Of a DNA stretch of 64,000 nt, positions 51,080 to 60,405 are shown piece by piece. The stretch is taken from the NCBI GenBank assembly GCA_964562525.1, contig CAZLTL010000007.1:32026-96025 (forward strand). The letters run 5' to 3'. Below the pieces are notes generated by a model. The model was not told where the DNA came from, did not search any database, and was given only the letters and a program-made list of their open reading frames with translations. The first letter of the stretch is position 1, and each line of letters starts with the position of its first letter. The position numbers and the translations under genes were made by a program. The DNA comes from an uncultured bacterium (GTDB taxonomy: Bacteria; Omnitrophota; Omnitrophia; Omnitrophales; Aquincolibacteriaceae).

Positions 51080-51130
51080 AATTAGTTCAAAACTCAGAGA
51101 TCAGAAATCAGAACCATAGCTCAAAACCTA

Positions 51131-51802
51131 TCAGCTAATCATCAAACTCTGAACTCTGATTTTTGAATTCTGAACTTTTCCTGCCTGTCCCCGCGGTACT
51201 CGGTACCTTTTTCTGGAAATGTTCCGATCTCTGTTTTGGAAACGCAAAAAAAGCATGCTGACAAAAACCATCAAAAGAAATAATCCAAGCCCCGACAACA
51301 AGAGAACATCTTTCAACTCCAAAATCTTAGCGCTGTTTAAATAAAATGCCGCTGCTAAAAATACTACCCCCGTAATAATCCCGCCAACAGGTACAATTAA
51401 AGCATAGGACTTAGAAACATCTATGGCTGACTGCAGTCGCCCTCTCTGTCCCTTTGAGCGCAAAATCGCATGGGGGTCGCGCAGAGGATGGAATGCATGA
51501 TATCGATAGAGACACAGAAAGAAAATAATTACTCCACTTCCAATAAAAAAAGGCAGTTTTTCAAAAAAACTCATCTTGTCTTCAACTGAAAACTTAATGG
51601 CTGGCATCTTGTTGTCGGAATCTTCCAAGCAAATAGATCTTAATTCTTCATACGCCTTTGAATTCAAGCTCTGATGAGGAACATCAAATTTTTTCCCATT
51701 TTCACACTCAACCACAAATTTTTTTTCATTGGTCATTAGTGTGCCAAATACCAAGCCAAACACTACGCCAAAAATAGTAGCCCACCACAAAGAAAAACTC
51801 AC
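51131..51802 (-). CDS. Hypothetical membrane protein
   Basis: 4 TM; 223 aa. Confidence 0.45.
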   Translation of the reverse strand: MSFSLWWATIFGVVFGLVFGTLMTNEKKFVVECENGKKFDVPHQSLNSKAYEELRSICLEDSDNKMPAIKFSVEDKMSFFEKLPFFIGSGVIIFFLCLYRYHAFHPLRDPHAILRSKGQRGRLQSAIDVSKSYALIVPVGGIITGVVFLAAAFYLNSAKILELKDVLLLSGLGLFLLMVFVSMLFLRFQNRDRNISRKRYRVPRGQAGKVQNSKIRVQSLMIS

Positions 51803-51911
51803 AAATCACTACCTCCATCAGAAAAAACTAAGCTGTCACTCTCTTGCTGAGCCAACCAGCTGCTTTTAAAAATGTTCTGAACAAAACAGACTACAGACCG
51901 ACGACTGAAGA

Positions 51912-52232
51912 TTACCGACTAACGCTTCTGCTCGCCAAGTAATCACGCAGCTTTTTTTCATCCCCTACAAATCTTATATTGTCCCGTGAGATCCAACTAC
52001 CAACGGTAACACCAACAGTCTCACCTTTGATCAGATTTCCTGTTTGCACTACGGTTCCCTTTTTAATAATGCCAAACATGGGCTGATTATTTATTTTTCC
52101 GAATAGTTCCAAATTAATATCTTCAAGAAGAACGCCATAAAAAGGAGAAGGACGAGGCTTCATCACGGCAGTCATAAAACCTGAGACATACACACAAAGC
52201 AGAACAATCACAGTCACAATTTTTCTTTTCAT
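51912..52232 (-). CDS. Hypothetical small secreted protein; C-terminal codons are supplied by repeat family A
   Basis: N-terminal signal/TM. Confidence 0.4.
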   Translation of the reverse strand: MKRKIVTVIVLLCVYVSGFMTAVMKPRPSPFYGVLLEDINLELFGKINNQPMFGIIKKGTVVQTGNLIKGETVGVTVGSWISRDNIRFVGDEKKLRDYLASRSVSR

Positions 52233-52565
52233 AGGTTTACCTTTTTAACCCGGCACTTTTACAAGCCGAAGCATCGCTTCGAACCAGTGGTCGCATGACC
52301 AGAAATGTTCCGATCGAAATCAGACTAAAGACCAACGACTGAAGACTAACGACTACTTTGAACCCGGTAAGCCTCGACATCAGTCGAGAACCAATGGTCG
52401 CATGACCACACTTTTAGAAATGTTCCGATCTCTGAGCAGACCCAAACATTTTTTCATTTATTTAACCCGGCACTTCCGGTACCGGTACCTTTTCTATTCA
52501 AATGACTAAAGACTACCCCTTCGACTTCGCTCAGGGCAAGCGACTACTTTGAAGCCTACACTTAT
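52233..52565. repeat. 333 bp intergenic mosaic of repeats: tandem units cgaaccagtggtcgcatgacc-agaaatgttccgatc, family A, family B (acccggcacttccggtaccggtacctttt), and a 62 bp duplicate (52438-52499) of the bla start region
   Basis: Each segment has one or more copies elsewhere in 50-55 kb; the reverse complement reads ATGAAAAAATGTTTGGGTCTGCTC, matching the first 8 codons of bla. Confidence 0.7.
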
Positions 52566-52928
52566 TTATACAGCTTCCAAAATCTCGCTGACTTTTTTCC
52601 GGAAATCCTCGATAGAAAAAGGTTTGGGCAAAAAACAAACCATATCTCCATCGGCAAAAATACTTTTCACGCTTTCGCGACTCGACATCACAAGCACAGG
52701 AATATTTCGGTAAGGCGAATCCGGACGCTTGAGGTTAACAAGCAACTCATATCCCGTCATTTCAGGCATCAACACATCGGTAGCGATCAAGTCAGGCTGA
52801 ATACGGCCCACACCATCTAACGCCGCCGCGCCATTGGAAAAAATGGTAACCTCATAATCCGCTCTCAGCATCGCCTTTAAAAGCGCCGCAAGGCTAGGAT
52901 CGTCGTCCACGATCATTATTTTTTTCAT
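52566..52928 (-). CDS. Single-domain CheY-like response regulator (orphan receiver)
   Basis: MKKIMIVDDD, phospho-acceptor D in LIATDVLMP, conserved K in FLPKP. Confidence 0.8.
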   Translation of the reverse strand: MKKIMIVDDDPSLAALLKAMLRADYEVTIFSNGAAALDGVGRIQPDLIATDVLMPEMTGYELLVNLKRPDSPYRNIPVLVMSSRESVKSIFADGDMVCFLPKPFSIEDFRKKVSEILEAV

Positions 52929-53020
52929 CTTACCTGTCCCTTTGGTAAACGGTACCTTTTTTACTCGCCTGTCCCCGCGATTCCCGGTACCTTTTTTTGG
53001 GCGACTAACGTCTTTTTTAG
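52929..53020. repeat. Two family-B-like units (cctgtccc-tttggtaaacggtacctttttt; cctgtccccgcgattcccggtaccttttttt) between bla and the receiver gene
   Basis: Shared ggtacc-Tn ends with the other B copies. Confidence 0.5.
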
Positions 53021-53818
53021 TTATTCAAATAAAGACTCAACAAGAACGCGAACATCTTTTCCCGTCGCGCCGTCACCTTTTACCACGGCTGCAAAAGCAT
53101 AATTTTCATTATGAGACTCAACATATCCGACAAACCAGCCATAGTTCGACTGCGGTGCGTTGTTCATGGCACTGCCCGTTTTTCCATAAAGCACGCTCTG
53201 CGAAACTTCCTTCACACGCATGATTTCTTTTAACCCTGCTCGCGTTTTTTCCGAAAAAGGCAATTGTCCTGAAACCAACCGGCACAAAAGCTGCGCTTGC
53301 TCAAACGGTGAAATCAAAATTGTTTGGCGGTTTTCAGCGGGGAGCCAAAAAACATCAAGCCCTGCACTGATATCCTCATTACCGTACCCGATGCGGTTCA
53401 GCCAATTTTGCATAGCCTCGGCTCCGATTGAGCGCGCCAAAGCTTGATACGCGGGCACGGAAGAAACACGGAATGCCTCTTTTAAATTCAAATTCTGATT
53501 CCAATCCGGAATCGCACGCGTCACACCGTCCCACTCGTAAAACGATTGCTCGGGAGAGGTCAGCACCCCCTCCTCAAATCCAATCAATGTATTCCAGATT
53601 TTAAAAGTGGAACACGGTGCCAGTTTTTTCGAAACCCCCTCGGGATTGAATTGCAAAGCTTGCTCCGACCCGCAATCCAGCATCACAAACGCACCGTCAC
53701 GCCCCTCAAAAATAGATTGAACCCTCGCCTCAGAAACCGGTAAAACACTCTCATTCGCCGCAACCGATAAGGCAGCATTGAAACAGAAACAAATGAGCAG
53801 ACCCAAACATTTTTTCAT
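53021..53818 (-). CDS. Class D (OXA-type) serine beta-lactamase
   Basis: Signal peptide; STFK (PCSTFKIW), SVP-type motif, YGN, KTG, and W..G (GWFVGYVE). Confidence 0.85.
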   Translation of the reverse strand: MKKCLGLLICFCFNAALSVAANESVLPVSEARVQSIFEGRDGAFVMLDCGSEQALQFNPEGVSKKLAPCSTFKIWNTLIGFEEGVLTSPEQSFYEWDGVTRAIPDWNQNLNLKEAFRVSSVPAYQALARSIGAEAMQNWLNRIGYGNEDISAGLDVFWLPAENRQTILISPFEQAQLLCRLVSGQLPFSEKTRAGLKEIMRVKEVSQSVLYGKTGSAMNNAPQSNYGWFVGYVESHNENYAFAAVVKGDGATGKDVRVLVESLFE

Positions 53819-53857
53819 TTATTTAACCCGGCACTTCCGGTACCGGTACCTTTTTCT
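53795..53857. repeat. 62 bp repeat (copy 2) spanning the bla start codon and the 3' end of the upstream gene; identical to 52438-52499 except one T
   Basis: Direct alignment gagcagacccaaacattttttcatttatttaacccggcacttccggtaccggtacc. Confidence 0.75.
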
Positions 53858-54396
53858 GTTTTCTGTAATTCAGAGCCCATGTTAATTAAGTCAGTTAAAT
53901 TTGCTCCGGCTGCATAGCTAATCATAAATTTTCCGTGCTGAAGCTCTTCGATTAATTTTTTCAATCGATGAACTTTTATCCCAGCTTGTTCAATCAGTCT
54001 GACTTCATCTTCAGACTTCACATTGTGAATGACGAGCTCACTAGACCACGGTTTGTTGAAAAGAGCTTGCATCAACTTTCTCTTTTTAGGTTCATTAAAT
54101 TTTATTTCAACCCATTCCTTGACACCTTGCTCCAGATCCCCAGGCTCTCGCTTAGCGCTAGTTGCACCGCGCCCTTTAGCCCGCTGAACTTCTTTTGGAA
54201 CCCTAGATATATAGCTGACAGGACGCATAGAAGCTTGCACTTCGATATGCCGACATTCTTCAACCTCCGCACCTTTAATCTTAATTGCCAAAAGATCCAT
54301 TTCATGAACACCGAGCTTGATACCACGAATGGTAAAATAACCCTGCCGATTTAACCATTCCTCCACAATTTCTTCTGCCAACAATGCCATAGACAA
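53815..54396 (-). CDS. YraN/UPF0102-like PD-(D/E)xK-fold protein with the Lys position occupied by Gln (EVQ), plus a ~110 aa C-terminal extension; stop overlaps the bla start (ATGA)
   Basis: EEWLNRQGYFTIRGIKLGVHEMDLLAIK...IEVQAS parallels the YraN GEIDLIA...VEVK pattern; the C-terminal GTGTGSAGLNK is encoded by repeat family B. Confidence 0.45.
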   Translation of the reverse strand: MSMALLAEEIVEEWLNRQGYFTIRGIKLGVHEMDLLAIKIKGAEVEECRHIEVQASMRPVSYISRVPKEVQRAKGRGATSAKREPGDLEQGVKEWVEIKFNEPKKRKLMQALFNKPWSSELVIHNVKSEDEVRLIEQAGIKVHRLKKLIEELQHGKFMISYAAGANLTDLINMGSELQKTEKGTGTGSAGLNK

Positions 54397-54429
54397 CCTC
54401 TAGCTAACTTTTACCTTTTATACTTAACC

Positions 54430-54595
54430 TTTAACCTGCACTCTTACCTGTCCCCGCGGTACCCGGTACCTTTTTTTTCCAACCTGGCACTTCCGGTACC
54501 GGTATCTTTTTCTTAATCAAATCAGACTACAGACCAACGACCGAAGACTAACGACTTTTCGAACCCGGCACTTCCGGTACCGGTACCTTTTTAGA
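54430..54595. repeat. Cluster of family B repeats (three copies) and family A (54526-54563) between the DUF4062-like gene and the nuclease-like gene
   Basis: cctgtccccgcggtacccggtaccttttt; aacctggcacttccggtaccggtatcttttt; aacccggcacttccggtaccggtaccttttt. Confidence 0.65.
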
Positions 54596-55553
54596 AAGGA
54601 ACATTCTCATCCGGGGCATCGAGCACATCCAACTTCAGATCCGCTTCTTTCCATTCTTCAGGCGTAAAAATCTTTAAACGCCCTTCAGCATCAAATATAC
54701 TTTTATTGAACTTCAATAGATGTATTTTCTTGCCTCGGGTCTCCGTCCATTCAATAAAATTGGGACTATCCCAAAGCTCTTCCACCATCATGGAAAAACC
54801 ACGTGCTCTTAGCCAAGCCTCAAACTCTGATTTATTAGTAAAATAAATTCGATAGGGAATTTTCAACATTTTCTTAAGTTGATTAAAAATTGGATGGCTA
54901 CCCAACAATATTTCTCGAATAGCAGCGTCTCCTCTTTCTTTTGCGCTGGTTAAAAAAGAAACCAACTGTTTTAGAGTTGCGATCATTTCTTTCATATCAG
55001 CCAGATCTAATAATTCTTTCTGCCGTGCATTCTCCTGAAGTAACCGCTGAAAAAGACCCGCCCATTGCTCCTGAAGATAGCCTGTAATATCTGCCGTAAT
55101 TTCAAATCCAGCCACTTGATTATTAAATGGTAAAGCAAAAACTTCGTCCAAAAATTTATAGATTTTGAGATCATCAACAGCGGCCGGCTTAAACTGCGCG
55201 TTGTCTCGATTTTTTTCATATGTTTTGTGTTCCGCAAGAACATTTTTTTCAACAAAAACATATATTTGTTTGTTTAATTCAATAGCTGTTTTCAACTCTT
55301 GCTGTGAAATTGAATAATCTTTCTCTTTTGACGGGCTACCATAACGACCTCCCACAATTGAAATAATAATGTCACAATGCTCTATTTCCTTATAACAGTA
55401 CTCTTCTAATTTTTTTTCTGCGCCATAAGCAACTGCACCACGCTCATGGAGAACAGGCTCAAAGCCTCTTTCCTTAATAAATCTTTCTAAATCAGCCCGA
55501 ACTACTTTTAAATCGTAATAAGTTGAACTCACAAAAACCCTAGGTCTTGCCAT
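54591..55553 (-). CDS. DUF4062-like N-terminal domain protein with an uncharacterised C-terminal region
   Basis: RVFVSSTYYDLKVVRADLERFIKERGFEPVLHE...CDIIISIVGGRYGS fits the DUF4062 start (VF[IV]SST..DL...R). Confidence 0.45.
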   Translation of the reverse strand: MARPRVFVSSTYYDLKVVRADLERFIKERGFEPVLHERGAVAYGAEKKLEEYCYKEIEHCDIIISIVGGRYGSPSKEKDYSISQQELKTAIELNKQIYVFVEKNVLAEHKTYEKNRDNAQFKPAAVDDLKIYKFLDEVFALPFNNQVAGFEITADITGYLQEQWAGLFQRLLQENARQKELLDLADMKEMIATLKQLVSFLTSAKERGDAAIREILLGSHPIFNQLKKMLKIPYRIYFTNKSEFEAWLRARGFSMMVEELWDSPNFIEWTETRGKKIHLLKFNKSIFDAEGRLKIFTPEEWKEADLKLDVLDAPDENVPF

Positions 55554-55670
55554 TTATAAACTCCTAAATTTAACTCGATACAAAAACCCAACTCTTTCGA
55601 TATTGCTTAGCTAGATCGAAAGAGTTATCAAAACAGGAAACCTTTTTGAGAGAAAAGTTTCTCCATTTCA

Positions 55671-55775
55671 CAGCCCCCCACCCCTCTTTGAACGAGGGGT
55701 TCAAGTCCGTTCTTTCGAAGCTGCGAGTTCTGCGCCGTCAGGACGCAGTTGTCTGAGCAGACCGAAAGAACGGAT
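55671..55775 (+). repeat. Structured repeat element copy 2: cagcccccca head, hairpin cccctc-tttgaac-gagggg, 12 bp stem tccgttctttcg(55706-55717)/cgaaagaacgga(55763-55774) around the conserved 45 nt core
   Basis: Core aagctgcgagttctgcgccgtcaggacgcagttgtctgagcagac differs from copy 1 at two positions. Confidence 0.55.
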
Positions 55776-55798
55776 TGAACCGAGCCACTTATATCGAA

Positions 55799-55892: not shown

Positions 55893-55925
55893 AAAAAGCC
55901 CGATGATTGCTCATCGGGCTTTTAA
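55893..55925 (-). terminator. Rho-independent terminator of nrdB (agcccgatga-ttgc-tcatcgggct, followed by TTTTTGTTTG on the minus strand)
   Basis: 10 bp perfect stem plus T-run. Confidence 0.75.
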
Positions 55926-55982: not shown

Positions 55983-57044
55983 TTACTCGTCCCAAGTCAA
56001 CGTTCCGCCTACTTGGTATTCGGTTACGCGCGTCTCAAAGAAATTCTTTTCTTTGCGAAGATCAATCACTTCACTCATCCAAGGAAAAGGATTTTCCGTC
56101 TTGCCGTATTGCTTATTGAGATTGAGTTTTTCCATGCGGCGATCAGCAATATGCTTAATGTATTGTTCAAGCATGGTATGCGTTAAACCCATGAGCCCAT
56201 TCGGAAGAAGATCTTTCGCGTAAGCGATTTCAAGCGCGACGCCTTCACGGAACATTTCTTCACATTCAGCTTTAAACTTTTCAGTCCAAACTTCCGGGTT
56301 TTCTTTGACGATGGTATTGATCAAGTCGATACCAAAGTTAAGATGCATCGATTCATCGCGCAAAATGTACTGAACCTGTTCGCATGTTCCCGGCAAACGG
56401 TTTTGACGGCCGAATGAAAGCAGCATCACAAACGCCGCGTAAAAGAAAACGCCTTCCATCACACCCGAAAAAGCCACCATGTTGCGGAGCAAACGCTGTT
56501 TGCCTTCAAGCGTGCTGGTGTCGAGATTCGGATTGCAAAGATCTTCGGTGTAGCGCGCTTCGAACTCAGCTTTGTCATGCATGGTTTTGCATTCGCGGTA
56601 CATGTTATAAAGCTCGGGCTCATCAAACGAAAGCGATTGCGGAATATATTGATACGCGTGCGTATGAATCGCTTCTTCGAAAGCTTGACGCAAAAGATAT
56701 TGGCGGCATTCCGGCGCGTTGATGTGCTTATAAAGACCAAGCACAAGGTTGTTGGCGACTAAAGTATCAGCCGTGGTAAAGAAACCAAGGTTGCGTTTAA
56801 TCATCAAGCGCTCATCATCCGTAAAAGCCTTAGGGTCTTTCCATTGCTCAATGTCGCGCTGCATGGAAACTTCCTGCGGCATCCAGTGATTAGCGCAGCT
56901 ATCAAGATAGTATTGCCATGCCCATTCATATTTAATGGGAATCAGCTGATTCACATCCACCGCCTTCGAGGCAAGGATGCGCTTGTCATCCTTGTTAATC
57001 TTTTGCGTTGTGAATGGGATGATGTCTTCTTTTCTGTCTAACAT
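55983..57044 (-). CDS. nrdB: Ribonucleoside-diphosphate reductase beta subunit (class Ia)
   Basis: Ferritin-like diiron fold; EEAIHTHAY and FVMLLSFGRQ motifs. Confidence 0.9.
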   Translation of the reverse strand: MLDRKEDIIPFTTQKINKDDKRILASKAVDVNQLIPIKYEWAWQYYLDSCANHWMPQEVSMQRDIEQWKDPKAFTDDERLMIKRNLGFFTTADTLVANNLVLGLYKHINAPECRQYLLRQAFEEAIHTHAYQYIPQSLSFDEPELYNMYRECKTMHDKAEFEARYTEDLCNPNLDTSTLEGKQRLLRNMVAFSGVMEGVFFYAAFVMLLSFGRQNRLPGTCEQVQYILRDESMHLNFGIDLINTIVKENPEVWTEKFKAECEEMFREGVALEIAYAKDLLPNGLMGLTHTMLEQYIKHIADRRMEKLNLNKQYGKTENPFPWMSEVIDLRKEKNFFETRVTEYQVGGTLTWDE

Positions 57045-57096: not shown

Positions 57097-57240
57097 AACA
57101 CATCTTTTGATAACCGCAAATAGTATGCCAAACAAAATTAGATCAGAGTTCAGAAATCAAAGATCAGAACCATAGCTTAAAATTCAAAGACCTTAAAAAT
57201 ATCTTTGAGCTCTGATCTATGGTTCTGATTTCTGATCTAT
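57097..57240. repeat. nrdA-nrdB intergenic inverted repeat agatcagaaccatag...ctatggttctgatct (arms about 57148-57175 and 57208-57240); an element family also present at 51097-51125
   Basis: Long imperfect palindrome; shared motif agatcagaaatcagaaccatagct. Confidence 0.55.
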
Positions 57241-57255
57241 AATTTTTGAACTTGC

Positions 57256-60200
57256 CTATTGGCAGGCTTCGCAGTCAGGTCCGTTCTCGATACTGCAAAC
57301 CATTTTCGCACGCGCCGCGGCTTCCGCATCGGCATCAACCACCGGTGCTTCAGGCTTTTTGTTGCGGCCGAGCGGGTCACCGTACTTATTCGCATCGAGC
57401 GTTGATTTCTCAATACGCGTCGCGCCAAGCGAACGGAGATAGTAAGTGGTTTTAAGACCGCGGGTCCACGCAAGCTGATACATTTGGCTCAAACGCTTTC
57501 CGTTTGGTTCTTCCATGTACAAGTTGAGTGATTGGCCCATATCGATCCACTTTTGACGGCGGCTTGCGCATTCAATGATCCATTCATGGCTGATTTCAAA
57601 CGCCGTGAGATAGCGTTCTTTGATCGATTCCGGAATGCGGCCGATTTCCTGCAAATTGCCGTCGAAGTATTTAAGATCATCGATCATTTGCTGATCCCAA
57701 AGGCCAAGCGCTTTCAGCTCGTCTACGAGATAAGGATTCGCGATCGTGAATTCACCCGACAAATTGCTCTTCACATAAATGTGTTTGTACATCGGCTCAA
57801 TCGACTGCGTTACGCCGGCAATGTTGCCGATCGTCGCTGTCGGCGCGATGGCCATACAATTGGAATTGCGCATGCCGTATTGCTTGATATGCTCGCGCAC
57901 CGGCTTCCAGTCGAGACGGCTGGAAGTATCCATATCAAGATATCCGCCGCGTTCGTCTTTCAGCAATTGAATGGTGTCGATCGGAAGCATGCCGCGGTCC
58001 CACTTGGAACCTTTGTAGCTGCCGTAAGTGCCTTTTTCTTTCGCGAGTTTGCTGGAACCCAAAATCGCGTAATACGAAATGGCTTCCATGCTCGCGTCGG
58101 CAAAATCAACCGCCGCTTGCGAAGCATAGCTGATCGCCTGAATATAAAGCGCGTCCTGAAAACCCATGATGCCGAGTCCTACCGGACGATGACGCAAATT
58201 AGCGTTCTTCGCTTCGATAGTCGGATAGAAGTTAATATCAATCACGTTATCAAGCATACGCATCGCAGTTTCAACCGTATCCGCCAAAAGTTTTTGGTTG
58301 AGTCCGGATTCCGTTGTATGCGCCGCCAAGTTGATGGAACCGAGATTGCACACCGCAGTTTCTTCGTTGGAAGTGTTAAGCAAAATTTCCGTGCAAAGAT
58401 TCGAGCTATGCACCACGCCCGCGTGATCCTGCGGAGAGCGGATGTTCGAAGGATCTTTGAAAGTAATCCACGGATGACCGGTTTCAAAAACCTGAGTCAA
58501 CATTTTGCGCCAAAGCTGAACGGCGGGAATCTTTTTGAAAAGAGCGATTTCTCCGCGCGCGGCTTTTTCTTCATAAGCGACATAACGCGCTTCAAAGTCT
58601 TTGCCGTAAGTGTCGTGAAGGTCTTTGGCTTCATTCGGGCTGAACAAAGTCCAATCTTCATTCGCCAAAACGCGCTTCATGAAAAGATCGGGAATCCAGT
58701 TCGCGGTATGCATATCATGCGTACGGCGGCGGTCATCCCCGGTGTTTTTACGAAGCTCAAGAAAATCTTCGACGTCAATGTGCCAGCATTCAAGATAAGC
58801 GCAAACCGCGCCTTTGCGTTTTCCGCCCTGGTTCACCGCAACAGCCGTATCATTGGCAACCTTCAAGAACGGCACCAACCCTTGGCTACGTCCGTTGGTT
58901 CCCTTAATGATAGAACCCATGCCGCGCACGCGTGTCCAGTCATTACCGAGGCCGCCCGACCATTTGGAAAGCTGAGCGTTGTCTTTCACACACTTGAAGA
59001 TGTGATCAAGATCGTCATCGACAGTGGTTAAGAAGCAGGAAGAAAGCTGAGAGTGCAAAGTGCCCGCGTTGAAAAGCGTCGGGGTCGAGCTGACAAAACG
59101 GAAAGACGAAAGCACTTCATAAAATTGAATCGCGCGTTCGGTTTTGTTTTTGCCTTCCACCAAAGAAAGCCCCATGGCCACGCGCATCCAGAAAGATTGC
59201 GGTGTTTCAAGGCGGCGGCCTTTTTCATGGATGAAATAGCGGTCATACAAAGTCTGCAAACCGATATACCCGAAAAGCAAATCGCGTTCAGGCTTCAAAG
59301 CCGCGCCGATTTTTTCAAGGTCAAACTCAAGCAAATCCGGAGAAAGGCGCTCAAACTTCACCATCGCCGTTAAAGCGGTGACGAAAGAAGTCGCATATTC
59401 TTTCTTCATATCTTTCATCATCAGCGGACGGCCGACGACTTCGGCATAAAGCTTGCGGAGAAGAATGCGCGCGGCAACCGAGCTGTACGCGGGCTCTTTT
59501 TCAATCAGAACACGAGTCGCAAGCAGCATCGCTTCGGTGAGCTGACTTTCTTTGATGCCGTTGAAGCAATTTTTAACTGTCCCCTTCAAAATTTCTTCAA
59601 CCGAAACTTTGTCTTCAAGACCATGGCAAGTTTCAGCAATGATGAGCTTCAGCTTTTCAACATCAAGACGTTCGGTGGAACCGTCTTCATGCGCGACGCG
59701 GATATTGGTGAGGCTCGCAAGCGGCTGAGCCTGTTCATTGGCTTCGGCAAAACGCTGTTGGCGCTGTTTTTCGCGGTAAACGATGTAATCGCGCGCGACA
59801 TCATGCTGCGCGGTTTCCATCAAAGACAATTCAACGATATCCTGGATTTCTTCGATATCAATCGTGTGAACGCCGGTATATTGATTCTTAAGGTAGTTCA
59901 CCACTTTGTCGGAAAGCAGCAAAACGCTTTGCTGAGTTTCAGGCTGCAAAGGATATTGATTCTTGCAAGCGGCAAAAGCTTTCGCGAGCGCGATCGTAAT
60001 TTTTTCAGGCTTGAACGAAACCACGCGCCCATCGCGCTTCTTCACCGTAAGACGCTCATGTTCGAAACGGCGCATTTCATGCTCGCGGCGGTAATTGTCA
60101 TATTCTTTGGAAATATCTTCAAAACCGGCAGCCTGAAGTTCACGCACCACGGTGTTTTGAATATCTTCGATAAAAACGATACTGCCCTTGGCGCCTTCGG

Positions 60201-60405
60201 TTTCGCACCATGCCACAACCTTGCCGGCGATCTGTTTAATTTTGGCTTGAGAGTCAGAATCAAGTTCGGATTCTTGCGGAATACCCAAGTGAGCTTTGAA
60301 AGCGGCTTCAATCGCGTTAAAAATACGAACATCGAAAAAAGGAACCTGTTGTCCGTTGCGTTTTTTGACGGTAAGCGATGAGCTCACATAAGACGGGGTT
60401 TGCAT
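57256..60405 (-). CDS. nrdA: Ribonucleoside-diphosphate reductase alpha subunit (class Ia) with three N-terminal ATP-cone domains
   Basis: 1049 aa; three VxKRxG-type cones (VKKRNGQQV, VKKRDGRVV, RVAHEDGSTE); catalytic NLCTEI and C-terminal CxxC tail. Confidence 0.9.
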   Translation of the reverse strand: MQTPSYVSSSLTVKKRNGQQVPFFDVRIFNAIEAAFKAHLGIPQESELDSDSQAKIKQIAGKVVAWCETEGAKGSIVFIEDIQNTVVRELQAAGFEDISKEYDNYRREHEMRRFEHERLTVKKRDGRVVSFKPEKITIALAKAFAACKNQYPLQPETQQSVLLLSDKVVNYLKNQYTGVHTIDIEEIQDIVELSLMETAQHDVARDYIVYREKQRQQRFAEANEQAQPLASLTNIRVAHEDGSTERLDVEKLKLIIAETCHGLEDKVSVEEILKGTVKNCFNGIKESQLTEAMLLATRVLIEKEPAYSSVAARILLRKLYAEVVGRPLMMKDMKKEYATSFVTALTAMVKFERLSPDLLEFDLEKIGAALKPERDLLFGYIGLQTLYDRYFIHEKGRRLETPQSFWMRVAMGLSLVEGKNKTERAIQFYEVLSSFRFVSSTPTLFNAGTLHSQLSSCFLTTVDDDLDHIFKCVKDNAQLSKWSGGLGNDWTRVRGMGSIIKGTNGRSQGLVPFLKVANDTAVAVNQGGKRKGAVCAYLECWHIDVEDFLELRKNTGDDRRRTHDMHTANWIPDLFMKRVLANEDWTLFSPNEAKDLHDTYGKDFEARYVAYEEKAARGEIALFKKIPAVQLWRKMLTQVFETGHPWITFKDPSNIRSPQDHAGVVHSSNLCTEILLNTSNEETAVCNLGSINLAAHTTESGLNQKLLADTVETAMRMLDNVIDINFYPTIEAKNANLRHRPVGLGIMGFQDALYIQAISYASQAAVDFADASMEAISYYAILGSSKLAKEKGTYGSYKGSKWDRGMLPIDTIQLLKDERGGYLDMDTSSRLDWKPVREHIKQYGMRNSNCMAIAPTATIGNIAGVTQSIEPMYKHIYVKSNLSGEFTIANPYLVDELKALGLWDQQMIDDLKYFDGNLQEIGRIPESIKERYLTAFEISHEWIIECASRRQKWIDMGQSLNLYMEEPNGKRLSQMYQLAWTRGLKTTYYLRSLGATRIEKSTLDANKYGDPLGRNKKPEAPVVDADAEAAARAKMVCSIENGPDCEACQ

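Follow-up and report, generated by a model that had tools for sequence, protein, structure and literature searches.

Downstream of nrdAB in an uncultured Omnitrophota bacterium, a variable segment rich in repeats holds two adjacent genes that appear to be functionally independent, horizontally mobile single genes and neighbors by chance. We analyzed 64,000 nucleotides of contig CAZLTL010000007.1 (assembly GCA_964562525.1, positions 32,026 to 96,025), referred to here as the window, and all coordinates are positions in it. The NrdB protein encoded in the window groups, at 90% identity, with a cluster in which the named entries are proteins from Omnitrophota metagenome-assembled genomes. The first gene (55553..54591, minus strand) encodes a 320-amino-acid (aa) DUF4062 protein with a TIR-like N-terminal domain, a predicted helical stalk, and a C-terminal auxiliary domain. 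The second (54396..53815, minus strand) encodes a 193-aa protein with a YraN-like PD-(D/E)xK fold. Both open reading frames (ORFs) were found as described in an earlier note on this DNA, which had proposed that together they are a defense or toxin module. We estimate the probability that the two genes are independent and adjacent by chance at about 75%. Judged by homology, the 320-aa gene represents a new lineage of the kind of defense gene described in 2026, distinct from those for the Swarozyc and Eva01 proteins, and the 193-aa gene belongs to a large, unannotated YraN-like family.

The two gene families do not occur together in the loci sampled

The lack of conserved co-occurrence of the two families, an outcome that the earlier note had itself listed as refuting, refuted the proposal that the genes are partners in a module. 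We used a sample of 80 genome loci with 10-kb flanks for the 320-aa family, spanning Thermoleophilia, Planctomycetia, anammox bacteria, Burkholderiales, Pseudomonas, Vibrio, Yersinia, Acinetobacter, Bacteroidota, Paenibacillus, Clostridia, cyanobacteria, and a Nitrososphaeraceae archaeon. The sample for the 193-aa family had 82 loci (80 metagenome loci and two long contigs). Using tblastn, we found the 193-aa family within 10 kb on either side of the 320-aa family in none of the 80 loci, and DUF4062, OXA, or nrd genes were present at none of the 82 loci sampled for the 193-aa family. Conserved neighbors were lacking for both families: in an all-against-all clustering of the flanking ORFs, no neighbor family was present in more than 5 of the 80 loci (320-aa family) or more than 4 of the 82 loci (193-aa family). 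We note, as a general caution, that two genes should not be taken for partners because they are adjacent within a variable island.

The neighbors of the 320-aa lineage are consistent with a role in defense. Its immediate neighbors include genes for type I restriction-modification subunits, Mrr, PtuA, Old, GajA, AriA, and MADS proteins, and 66 loci of the family are in viral or prophage contigs. Together, the defense-gene neighbors and the viral and prophage copies fit with a defense role for the 320-aa protein.

The 320-aa protein is a DUF4062 protein with the catalytic glutamate

The N terminus of the 320-aa protein, which had been likened to DUF4062 and to TIR-like domains from its sequence, matched Pfam PF13271 (DUF4062) over residues 5-90 and far above the cut-off (E=1.2e-19; 70.8 bits versus a cut-off of 24.7). 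The N-terminal domain has an alpha/beta fold like that of TIR domains and nucleoside deoxyribosyltransferases, as the resemblance had suggested. DUF4062, renamed NIR, is a TIR-like NADase effector of abortive-infection systems for which NADase and defense activity have been shown (10.64898/2026.05.01.722283, 10.64898/2026.06.25.731849, 10.64898/2026.09.04.749371). There were approximately 1,970 homologs of the 320-aa protein; nearly all of the best 120 were 310-330 aa long, and their alignments spanned most or all of the query. The taxonomy of the family was patchy at approximately 50% identity, with members in Thermoleophilia, Paenibacillus, Pseudomonas, and an archaeon. These results place the Omnitrophota gene and approximately 2,000 relatives, from more than 15 phyla and many prophages, in the newly recognized DUF4062 NADase immune family.

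The AlphaFold2 model of the 320-aa protein had a mean predicted local distance difference test score (pLDDT) of 75.5 and consisted of an alpha/beta domain (residues 1-150), a 50-residue helix (residues 153-203), a compact C-terminal domain (residues 209-312), and a tail. The DUF4062/TIR-like catalytic domain is encoded at 55062..55553 (minus strand; residues 1-164, of which the hhalign alignment described below covered columns 3-164 only). The C-terminal auxiliary domain (54618..54929, minus strand) was modeled as three helices, a beta-hairpin, and a final strand, with pLDDT of 86-90 over most of its length, and is presumed to be the sensor. We detected no homolog of the auxiliary domain outside the lineage, no sequence match in the PDB for the C-terminal half of the protein, and no similarity to the auxiliary domain of Swarozyc by BLASTP or hhalign.

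We compared the 320-aa protein to DUF4062 proteins with assigned catalytic residues and found that the likely catalytic glutamate is E86 (codon GAG, 55296-55298, minus strand), which is invariant in 47 family sequences. Three alignments and one alignment column support the presence of this residue. First, the family profile matched KpSwz, the Swarozyc protein of Klebsiella pneumoniae, in the PDB (10wc; E=9e-5, DUF4062 domain only), with E86 opposite an alanine. Second, hhalign with a Swarozyc-like Vibrio protein (79% identity to the KpSwz core) gave a probability of 97% over columns 3-164, with E86 opposite the second glutamate of SYTEKEF. Third, an Eva01-like staphylococcal protein has ISYIEKEY at this place, which with a two-residue N-terminal offset is E87-Y88. 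Lastly, when 32 diverse DUF4062 cores were aligned with MAFFT, there was an invariant S-x-[ST]-x-x-E-[YFL] column. Based on these alignments, we conclude that E86 corresponds to the catalytic glutamate of KpSwz (E97) and Eva01 (E87) and that this residue is present in the 320-aa protein.

In a first look with HMMER, the catalytic glutamate of KpSwz appeared to be opposite Gln84. We rejected this assignment: the PDB chain is that of the E97A mutant, and the homologs from Vibrio and Staphylococcus decide the matter. PDB entry 10wc_A, being the E97A construct, has an alanine in place of the catalytic residue, and a naive alignment to it points to the neighboring glutamate. This sequence could mislead automated annotation.

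The 320-aa lineage is separate from the DUF4062 systems that have been named

The earlier note had stated that neither protein matches a named system. This is correct with respect to PADLOC (2023) and is no longer so for the 320-aa protein, as three preprints from 2026 name single-gene DUF4062 defenses. In Swarozyc, the catalytic residue of KpSwz is E97, and the protein has stalk helices as well as a winged-helix auxiliary domain for binding of the phage portal (10.64898/2026.05.01.722283). In Evangelion, Eva01 has F11, E87-Y88, and W162, and escape mutations are in phage recombinases (10.64898/2026.06.25.731849). A NIR domain is also part of the NIR-Avs, Vulcan, and Vesta systems (10.64898/2026.09.04.749371).

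The overall plan of the 320-aa protein resembles that of Swarozyc (KpSwz, PDB 10wc). Both are single proteins of approximately 320-340 aa with an N-terminal DUF4062 TIR-like domain, a catalytic glutamate in S-x-[ST]-x-x-E, an extended helical stalk, and a C-terminal domain that is compact, and a tryptophan closes the DUF4062 domain (W164 here aligns with W162 of the Swarozyc-like Vibrio protein). However, homology stopped at residue 164 by hmmsearch, BLASTP, and hhalign, identity in the core was only approximately 28-37%, and the stalk and auxiliary domain had no detectable sequence similarity to those of Swarozyc. Because there is no homology past residue 164, the trigger of KpSwz (the phage portal) cannot be transferred to the 320-aa protein.

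Evangelion, whose Eva01 is found on staphylococcal and enterococcal resistance plasmids, is also a single gene with a DUF4062 core and a diversified auxiliary region. Common to the two proteins are an aromatic residue near the N terminus (F7 here, F11 in Eva01) and the catalytic motif E-[YFL] (E86-L87 here, E87-Y88 in Eva01), and in both cases there is an adjoining antibiotic-resistance gene. In contrast to Eva01, the 320-aa protein is longer, has a different auxiliary domain, and is chromosomal or prophage-borne across many phyla. We searched 72,556 plasmids and found no full-length relative of the 320-aa protein; the six matches had 28-30% identity over 40-67% of the query, corresponding to the core. 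The KpSwz core, by contrast, matched 196 staphylococcal plasmids. The lack of similarity past residue 164 and of a full-length relative on plasmids indicates that the 320-aa lineage is separate from Swarozyc and Eva01. Vulcan, Vesta, and NIR-Avs have the same effector domain family with the catalytic glutamate and differ in the rest of the system: the model of the 320-aa protein has no HEAT repeats, the protein is only 320 aa and has no STAND NTPase, and an alkaline phosphatase (vstB, as in Vesta) was not among the conserved neighbors or the top neighbor Pfam families of the 80 loci.

We infer that the 320-aa protein is a single-protein abortive-infection defense of the DUF4062 (NIR) kind. The TIR-like NADase domain (residues 1-164, with E86) would be kept inactive until a phage cue was sensed by the auxiliary domain and relayed through the helix at residues 153-203, which would switch on the NADase. 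The active enzyme would then hydrolyze NAD+ and the infected cell would be halted. The acidic tail of the protein, described below, would take part in sensing or in autoinhibition.

The 320-aa protein ends with a sequence like the C-terminal tip of SSB

[quoted passage not shown] Among ORFs of at least 60 aa in the 64-kb window, it is the only one that ends in PF. In the alignment of the lineage, the protein ends in [DE][DE][DE][ILV]PF, preceded by an acidic linker of variable length. PF was the C terminus in 102 of 120 homologs, the pattern [DE][DE]x0-1[ILVMFT]PF$ fit 91 of the 120, and the most common endings were DDDIPF (28), DDDLPF (14), and DEDIPF (7). The conserved C-terminal hexapeptide of SSB is DDDIPF (PMC5872125), and the match to the SSB tip extended to [FM]DDDIPF in several members. 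The tail was retained in full-length prophage copies. It was not found in distant DUF4062 proteins with other C-terminal regions or in the Swarozyc-like Vibrio protein, which ends in ...IKMRVVEK.

The SSB tip (...DFDDDIPF in Escherichia coli) is a hub that recruits genome-maintenance proteins, and the 320-aa protein has the same class of hexapeptide after an acidic, length-variable linker. It has no oligonucleotide-binding (OB) fold and is not an SSB, and any binding of SSB partners by the tail is putative. The residue before PF tracked taxonomy: LPF was found in Bacteroidota, Acinetobacter, and Paenibacillus, and IPF in most other Proteobacteria. The choice of isoleucine or leucine could reflect the SSB tips of the hosts or simply the phylogeny of the gene.

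One tentative and rather doubtful interpretation is that the tail is a molecular mimic of the SSB tip that serves as bait for phage proteins that dock on SSB, and that binding switches on the NADase. Phage mediators like Sak4, UvsY, or RecO, helicase loaders, or exonucleases would dock on the tail, and docking would lift autoinhibition and turn on the NADase. The phage recombinase Sak4 depends on the six C-terminal residues of its SSB (PMC5928155), and mutations that allow escape from Eva01 map to genes for Sak4/RecA-like and UvsX-like proteins (10.64898/2026.06.25.731849); these two findings make a bait role plausible. If true, the protein would be an immune sensor that guards a conserved host interaction hub by means of a decoy peptide, and the reported connection of Evangelion escape mutants with phage recombinases could be approached mechanistically. 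Neither SSB nor such a tail is mentioned in any of the three DUF4062 preprints. We consider the tail the most valuable lead of the locus, as it suggests a concrete and cheaply testable hypothesis for sensing.

The 193-aa protein belongs to a large family with a YraN-like nuclease fold

The 193-aa protein had no match in Pfam, NCBIfam, PADLOC, or PHROGs. It has more than 1,200 homologs, all unannotated, of approximately 175-180 aa and 55-67% identity, from Rhodocyclaceae, Methylophilaceae, Vicinamibacterales, marine samples, and others. An exhaustive profile search grouped the family into 582 clusters at 50% identity, nearly all of them stand-alone proteins of 160-190 aa. The ORF of 193 codons begins with TTG. 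The ATG at 54390 is the likelier start, giving a protein of 191 aa: it is preceded by GAGG, and the family N terminus is MALLAEE.

A YraN-like PD-(D/E)xK core had been recognized in this protein from its sequence, and the predicted structure bore this out. The AlphaFold2 model (pLDDT 83.5; predicted template modeling score [pTM] 0.78) had the topology alpha-beta-beta-beta ... alpha-beta-alpha-beta, and contained the PD-(D/E)xK core (alpha-beta-beta-beta-alpha-beta) with acidic residues on strands 2 and 3. Sub-threshold matches to UPF0102 were found for 29 of 45 family members (best E=0.006), and there was none for the window protein itself. A search of the PDB with the family profile gave no match. 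Matches to a designed TIM barrel and to MurB obtained in the PDB with the single sequence look spurious, and we rejected them.

The putative active site is unusual. The motif E32-x-D34 ... H50-x-E52-x-Q54 is encoded at 54235-54303, and E32, D34, H50, E52, and K99 were nearly invariant across 212 sequences. As had been noted for the window protein, there is a glutamine where YraN has the catalytic lysine, and this substitution holds across the family: position 54 was Q in 187 of the 212 sequences, T in 7, H in 6, and S in 5, with lysine not among the residues counted. K99, an invariant lysine on the following helix, might substitute for the missing one. The note had also described a C-terminal extension of approximately 110 aa. 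There are extra helices at the C terminus, but the length was overstated, as part of this region is the alpha-beta4-alpha-beta5 of the core. What is actually added is a conserved basic insert of approximately 30 aa (approximately residues 55-84), together with the C-terminal helices. The conserved region of the family stops at ...DLIxMG, and the tails beyond it are variable.

YraN (UPF0102, PF02021) is a single-stranded DNA endonuclease that resolves transformation D-loops with ComM (10.1101/2024.02.06.579203). The 193-aa protein differs from it in being under the Pfam threshold, in having Q, T, H, or S for the motif lysine, and in having the basic insert and the extra C-terminal helices. Sequence identity to AF1548 (PDB 1y88), which is itself uncharacterized, and to the FokI-type cleavage domain was 10-17%, and the 193-aa protein has no attached DNA-recognition domain. 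The protein is most likely a metal-dependent nuclease or a nucleic-acid-binding protein that acts alone and not with the 320-aa protein. With its large size, high conservation, YraN-like fold, systematic loss of the motif lysine, and lack of a model in Pfam, NCBIfam, or PADLOC, the family is a candidate for a new family entry.

We made two additional observations on the family. In four loci, a short gene, suspected to be like uracil-DNA-glycosylase, overlaps the start of the family gene. In one set of contigs, the family gene is in a biotin operon, 10 nucleotides (nt) after bioB.

The genes are in a variable segment that is different in sister genomes

The segment containing both genes is strain-specific. 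We compared the locus by blastn to three sister Omnitrophota contigs. All three had nrdAB, at 86-91% nucleotide identity, as well as the downstream backbone of genes for TPMT, a Zn-ribbon protein, MscS, and MatE, in this order. Homology ended at 55659 and restarted at 51082, delimiting a segment of 4.6 kb downstream of nrdAB (51083..55658). Its cargo consists of the DUF4062, nuclease-fold, beta-lactamase, and receiver-domain genes and ORFs of 106 and 223 aa. At the same place, the sisters have genes for proteins of 558 aa and 111 or 122 aa instead. These results agree with the view in the earlier note that the locus is in a rearrangement-prone, repeat-rich island, as does the distribution of GGTACC sites: 12 of the 16 sites in the window are between 51202 and 54582 and thus concentrated in the variable segment.

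The 558-aa protein of the sisters (e.g., L247:2129-3805) had no match in Pfam. We rejected it as a known defense protein, since PADLOC gave only a marginal match to GajB (E=0.0065). Two of the three sisters also have a BrnT/BrnA toxin-antitoxin pair a few genes further on, just before the TPMT gene.

The 194-bp spacer between the DUF4062 and nuclease-fold ORFs (54397..54590, no strand) is made of short repeat modules; both its length and its repeat content were as first noted. The modules are of the GGCACTTCCGGTACCGGTACC, CCTGTCCCCGCGGTACC, and GACTAAAGACCAACGACT types and belong to repeat families D1-D4, and a pattern search for the spacer repeat found four copies versus zero expected. Two independent Logan assemblies of the same organism both break at 54563, within a spacer repeat. 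The repeat core that contains GGTACC, CCGGTACCGGTACC, was found only in assemblies of the same organism and in none of 245 loci from other organisms. We considered whether the GGTACC repeats might be terminators and rejected this, as the terminator-like hairpins are on the strand opposite the genes.

The overlap between the nuclease-fold and beta-lactamase genes looks incidental. The two ORFs overlap by ATGA on the minus strand (A at 53818, T at 53817, G at 53816, and A at 53815), with the TGA stop of the 193-aa ORF over the ATG of the beta-lactamase ORF. The overlap had been taken as evidence of translational coupling; the overlap is real, but the coupling was not supported. A 61-nt repeat (53794..53854) takes in the 3'-terminal codons of the nuclease-fold ORF with their stop, as well as the initial 25 nt of the beta-lactamase ORF. 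An identical copy (100%) is at 52433..52493, where the same 25 nt form an orphan beta-lactamase start with no nuclease-fold gene ahead of it and no ORF following it. Because this exact duplicate carries the beta-lactamase start elsewhere, the apparent coupling is part of a repeat unit. The nuclease-fold ORF simply runs on into the repeat until a stop codon is met: the last 12 residues of the 193-aa protein (KGTGTGSAGLNK) are read from the repeat and are inside the unconserved tail of the family, and, as described above, no OXA gene was found at any of the 82 loci.

The 61-nt duplication takes in the beta-lactamase start codon and the first eight codons. The orphan start was left in the 333-bp spacer after the receiver-domain gene (52928..52566, minus strand), a footprint of recombination between repeat modules. 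The 3' end of the 223-aa ORF (51131-51233) is similar in that its last codons (…RKRYRVPRGQAGK…) are likewise read from a GGTACC-type repeat, and invasion of the 3' ends of genes by repeats seems to be habitual in this segment.

Alternative explanations

Several points count against the picture of two independent genes, one of them a single-gene defense. In the window, the two genes lie side by side in the same orientation, no terminator-like site was found between them, and they may be co-transcribed here. The 193-aa family is highly conserved across phyla and often next to housekeeping genes. The pTM of the full-length model of the 320-aa protein was only 0.47, and the arrangement of its domains is therefore uncertain. 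The auxiliary domains of this lineage and of Swarozyc, which were compared by sequence only, may have a distant common origin. PADLOC (2023) had no model matching the 320-aa protein, we found no phage test of any member of its lineage in the literature, and in the window there was no other recognizable defense gene beside it.

Of the other explanations, the one that fared best, although still improbable, is that the 193-aa protein is a stand-alone defense nuclease, restriction-like or abortive, that is independent of the DUF4062 gene. Its fold is like that of restriction endonucleases, its distribution across phyla is patchy at approximately 60% identity, some of its neighbors are genes for EcoRI, a type I restriction endonuclease, PD-Lambda-4, AbiEi, MzaA, or TnsA, and there are arrays of small unknown genes around two of the loci (L244 and L004). 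However, the neighbors were mixed, with a few restriction, abortive-infection, or transposon genes, and many were housekeeping genes: family members are downstream of bioB, beside the gene for a SpoU methylase, or near dnaN, hemA/hemC, or a sigma-70 gene. In addition, the family had no match in PADLOC or PHROGs, a search of 2.9 million viral contigs found no copy, there was no conserved methyltransferase or immunity partner, and the sole informative fusion, of one family member to a uracil-DNA-glycosylase domain, points to DNA repair.

It is much less likely that the 320-aa protein is not immune and is instead an enzyme of nucleotide metabolism (a nucleoside deoxyribosyltransferase, a CMP hydrolase, or a DNPH1-like N-glycosidase) tied to the upstream ribonucleotide reductase genes. 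The fold of its N-terminal domain resembles that of nucleoside deoxyribosyltransferases, and its gene follows nrdA (60405..57256, minus strand) and nrdB (57044..55983, minus strand). We rejected a functional link between DUF4062 and ribonucleotide reductase: the arrangement with nrdAB was found in only 2 of the 80 loci, and the sister genomes have nrdAB without the DUF4062 gene. Furthermore, a consensus scan found a strong terminator-like hairpin with a 13-bp stem after nrdB (55894..55923, minus strand) and, 3' of the hairpin and ahead of the DUF4062 gene, a promoter-like site (55859-55832; also from the consensus scan only). Given these two sites, the DUF4062 gene is probably not in the nrd transcript.

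Less likely again is the two-gene module, in which the DUF4062 protein as sensor and NADase and the nuclease-fold protein as effector would work together in defense or in a manner like a toxin-antitoxin system. In addition to the adjacency, shared strand, and 194-bp distance in the window, both folds are common in defense systems. Against this are the lack of co-occurrence in 80 plus 82 independent loci, the finding that each family is overwhelmingly stand-alone with variable neighbors, the spacer made of genome-specific repeats, and the reports in the 2026 preprints that DUF4062 proteins of the same architecture act as single genes.

Lastly, an integron-type cassette array with the repeats as attC sites is hardly credible: the segment does have short single genes on one strand with related repeats between them and a class D beta-lactamase, a classic cassette gene, among its cargo, but there was no integrase-like domain among the ORFs of approximately 43.3-60.4 kb, the repeat modules are mosaic and run into the 3' ends of coding sequences, no R''/L''-L'/R' imperfect-palindrome organization was seen by eye in the orientation of the genes (no dedicated attC model was run), and the CCGGTACCGGTACC core was absent from the 245 loci of other organisms.

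Other features of the segment

The beta-lactamase gene (53818..53021, minus strand) encodes a putative class D (OXA-like) enzyme that has a signal peptide; the motifs STFK, YGN, and KTG were read in its translation. The protein matched the Pfam Transpeptidase family (E=2.8e-34) and scored 208 bits with the main NCBIfam model for class D (NF012161), under the cut-off of 250 bits. This uncultured Omnitrophota genome probably encodes a divergent OXA-like class D beta-lactamase.

The left edge of the variable segment is marked by a non-coding block of 126 nt just downstream of nrdB (55659-55783). This block is 93% identical in the sisters, compared to 86% for nrdB, and contains a long inverted repeat (GGTTCAAGTCCGTTCTTTCG ... 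CGAAAGAACGGATTGAACC). It had no match in Rfam at the gathering threshold. A DUF4062 gene is also directly downstream of nrdAB in three Pseudomonas/Halopseudomonas genomes, with a gap of 70 bp in P. monsensis, and in none of the other 78 loci; the region 3' of nrdB may be a hotspot where insertions recur.

A second repeat family, with AGTTCAGAAATCA/GATCAGAAC units, is present at 57140-57252 and 51084-51176. Between nrdA and nrdB, the units form an imperfect palindrome of 51 nt. The family is found again at the right edge of this variable segment; there, the arms are 90% complementary.

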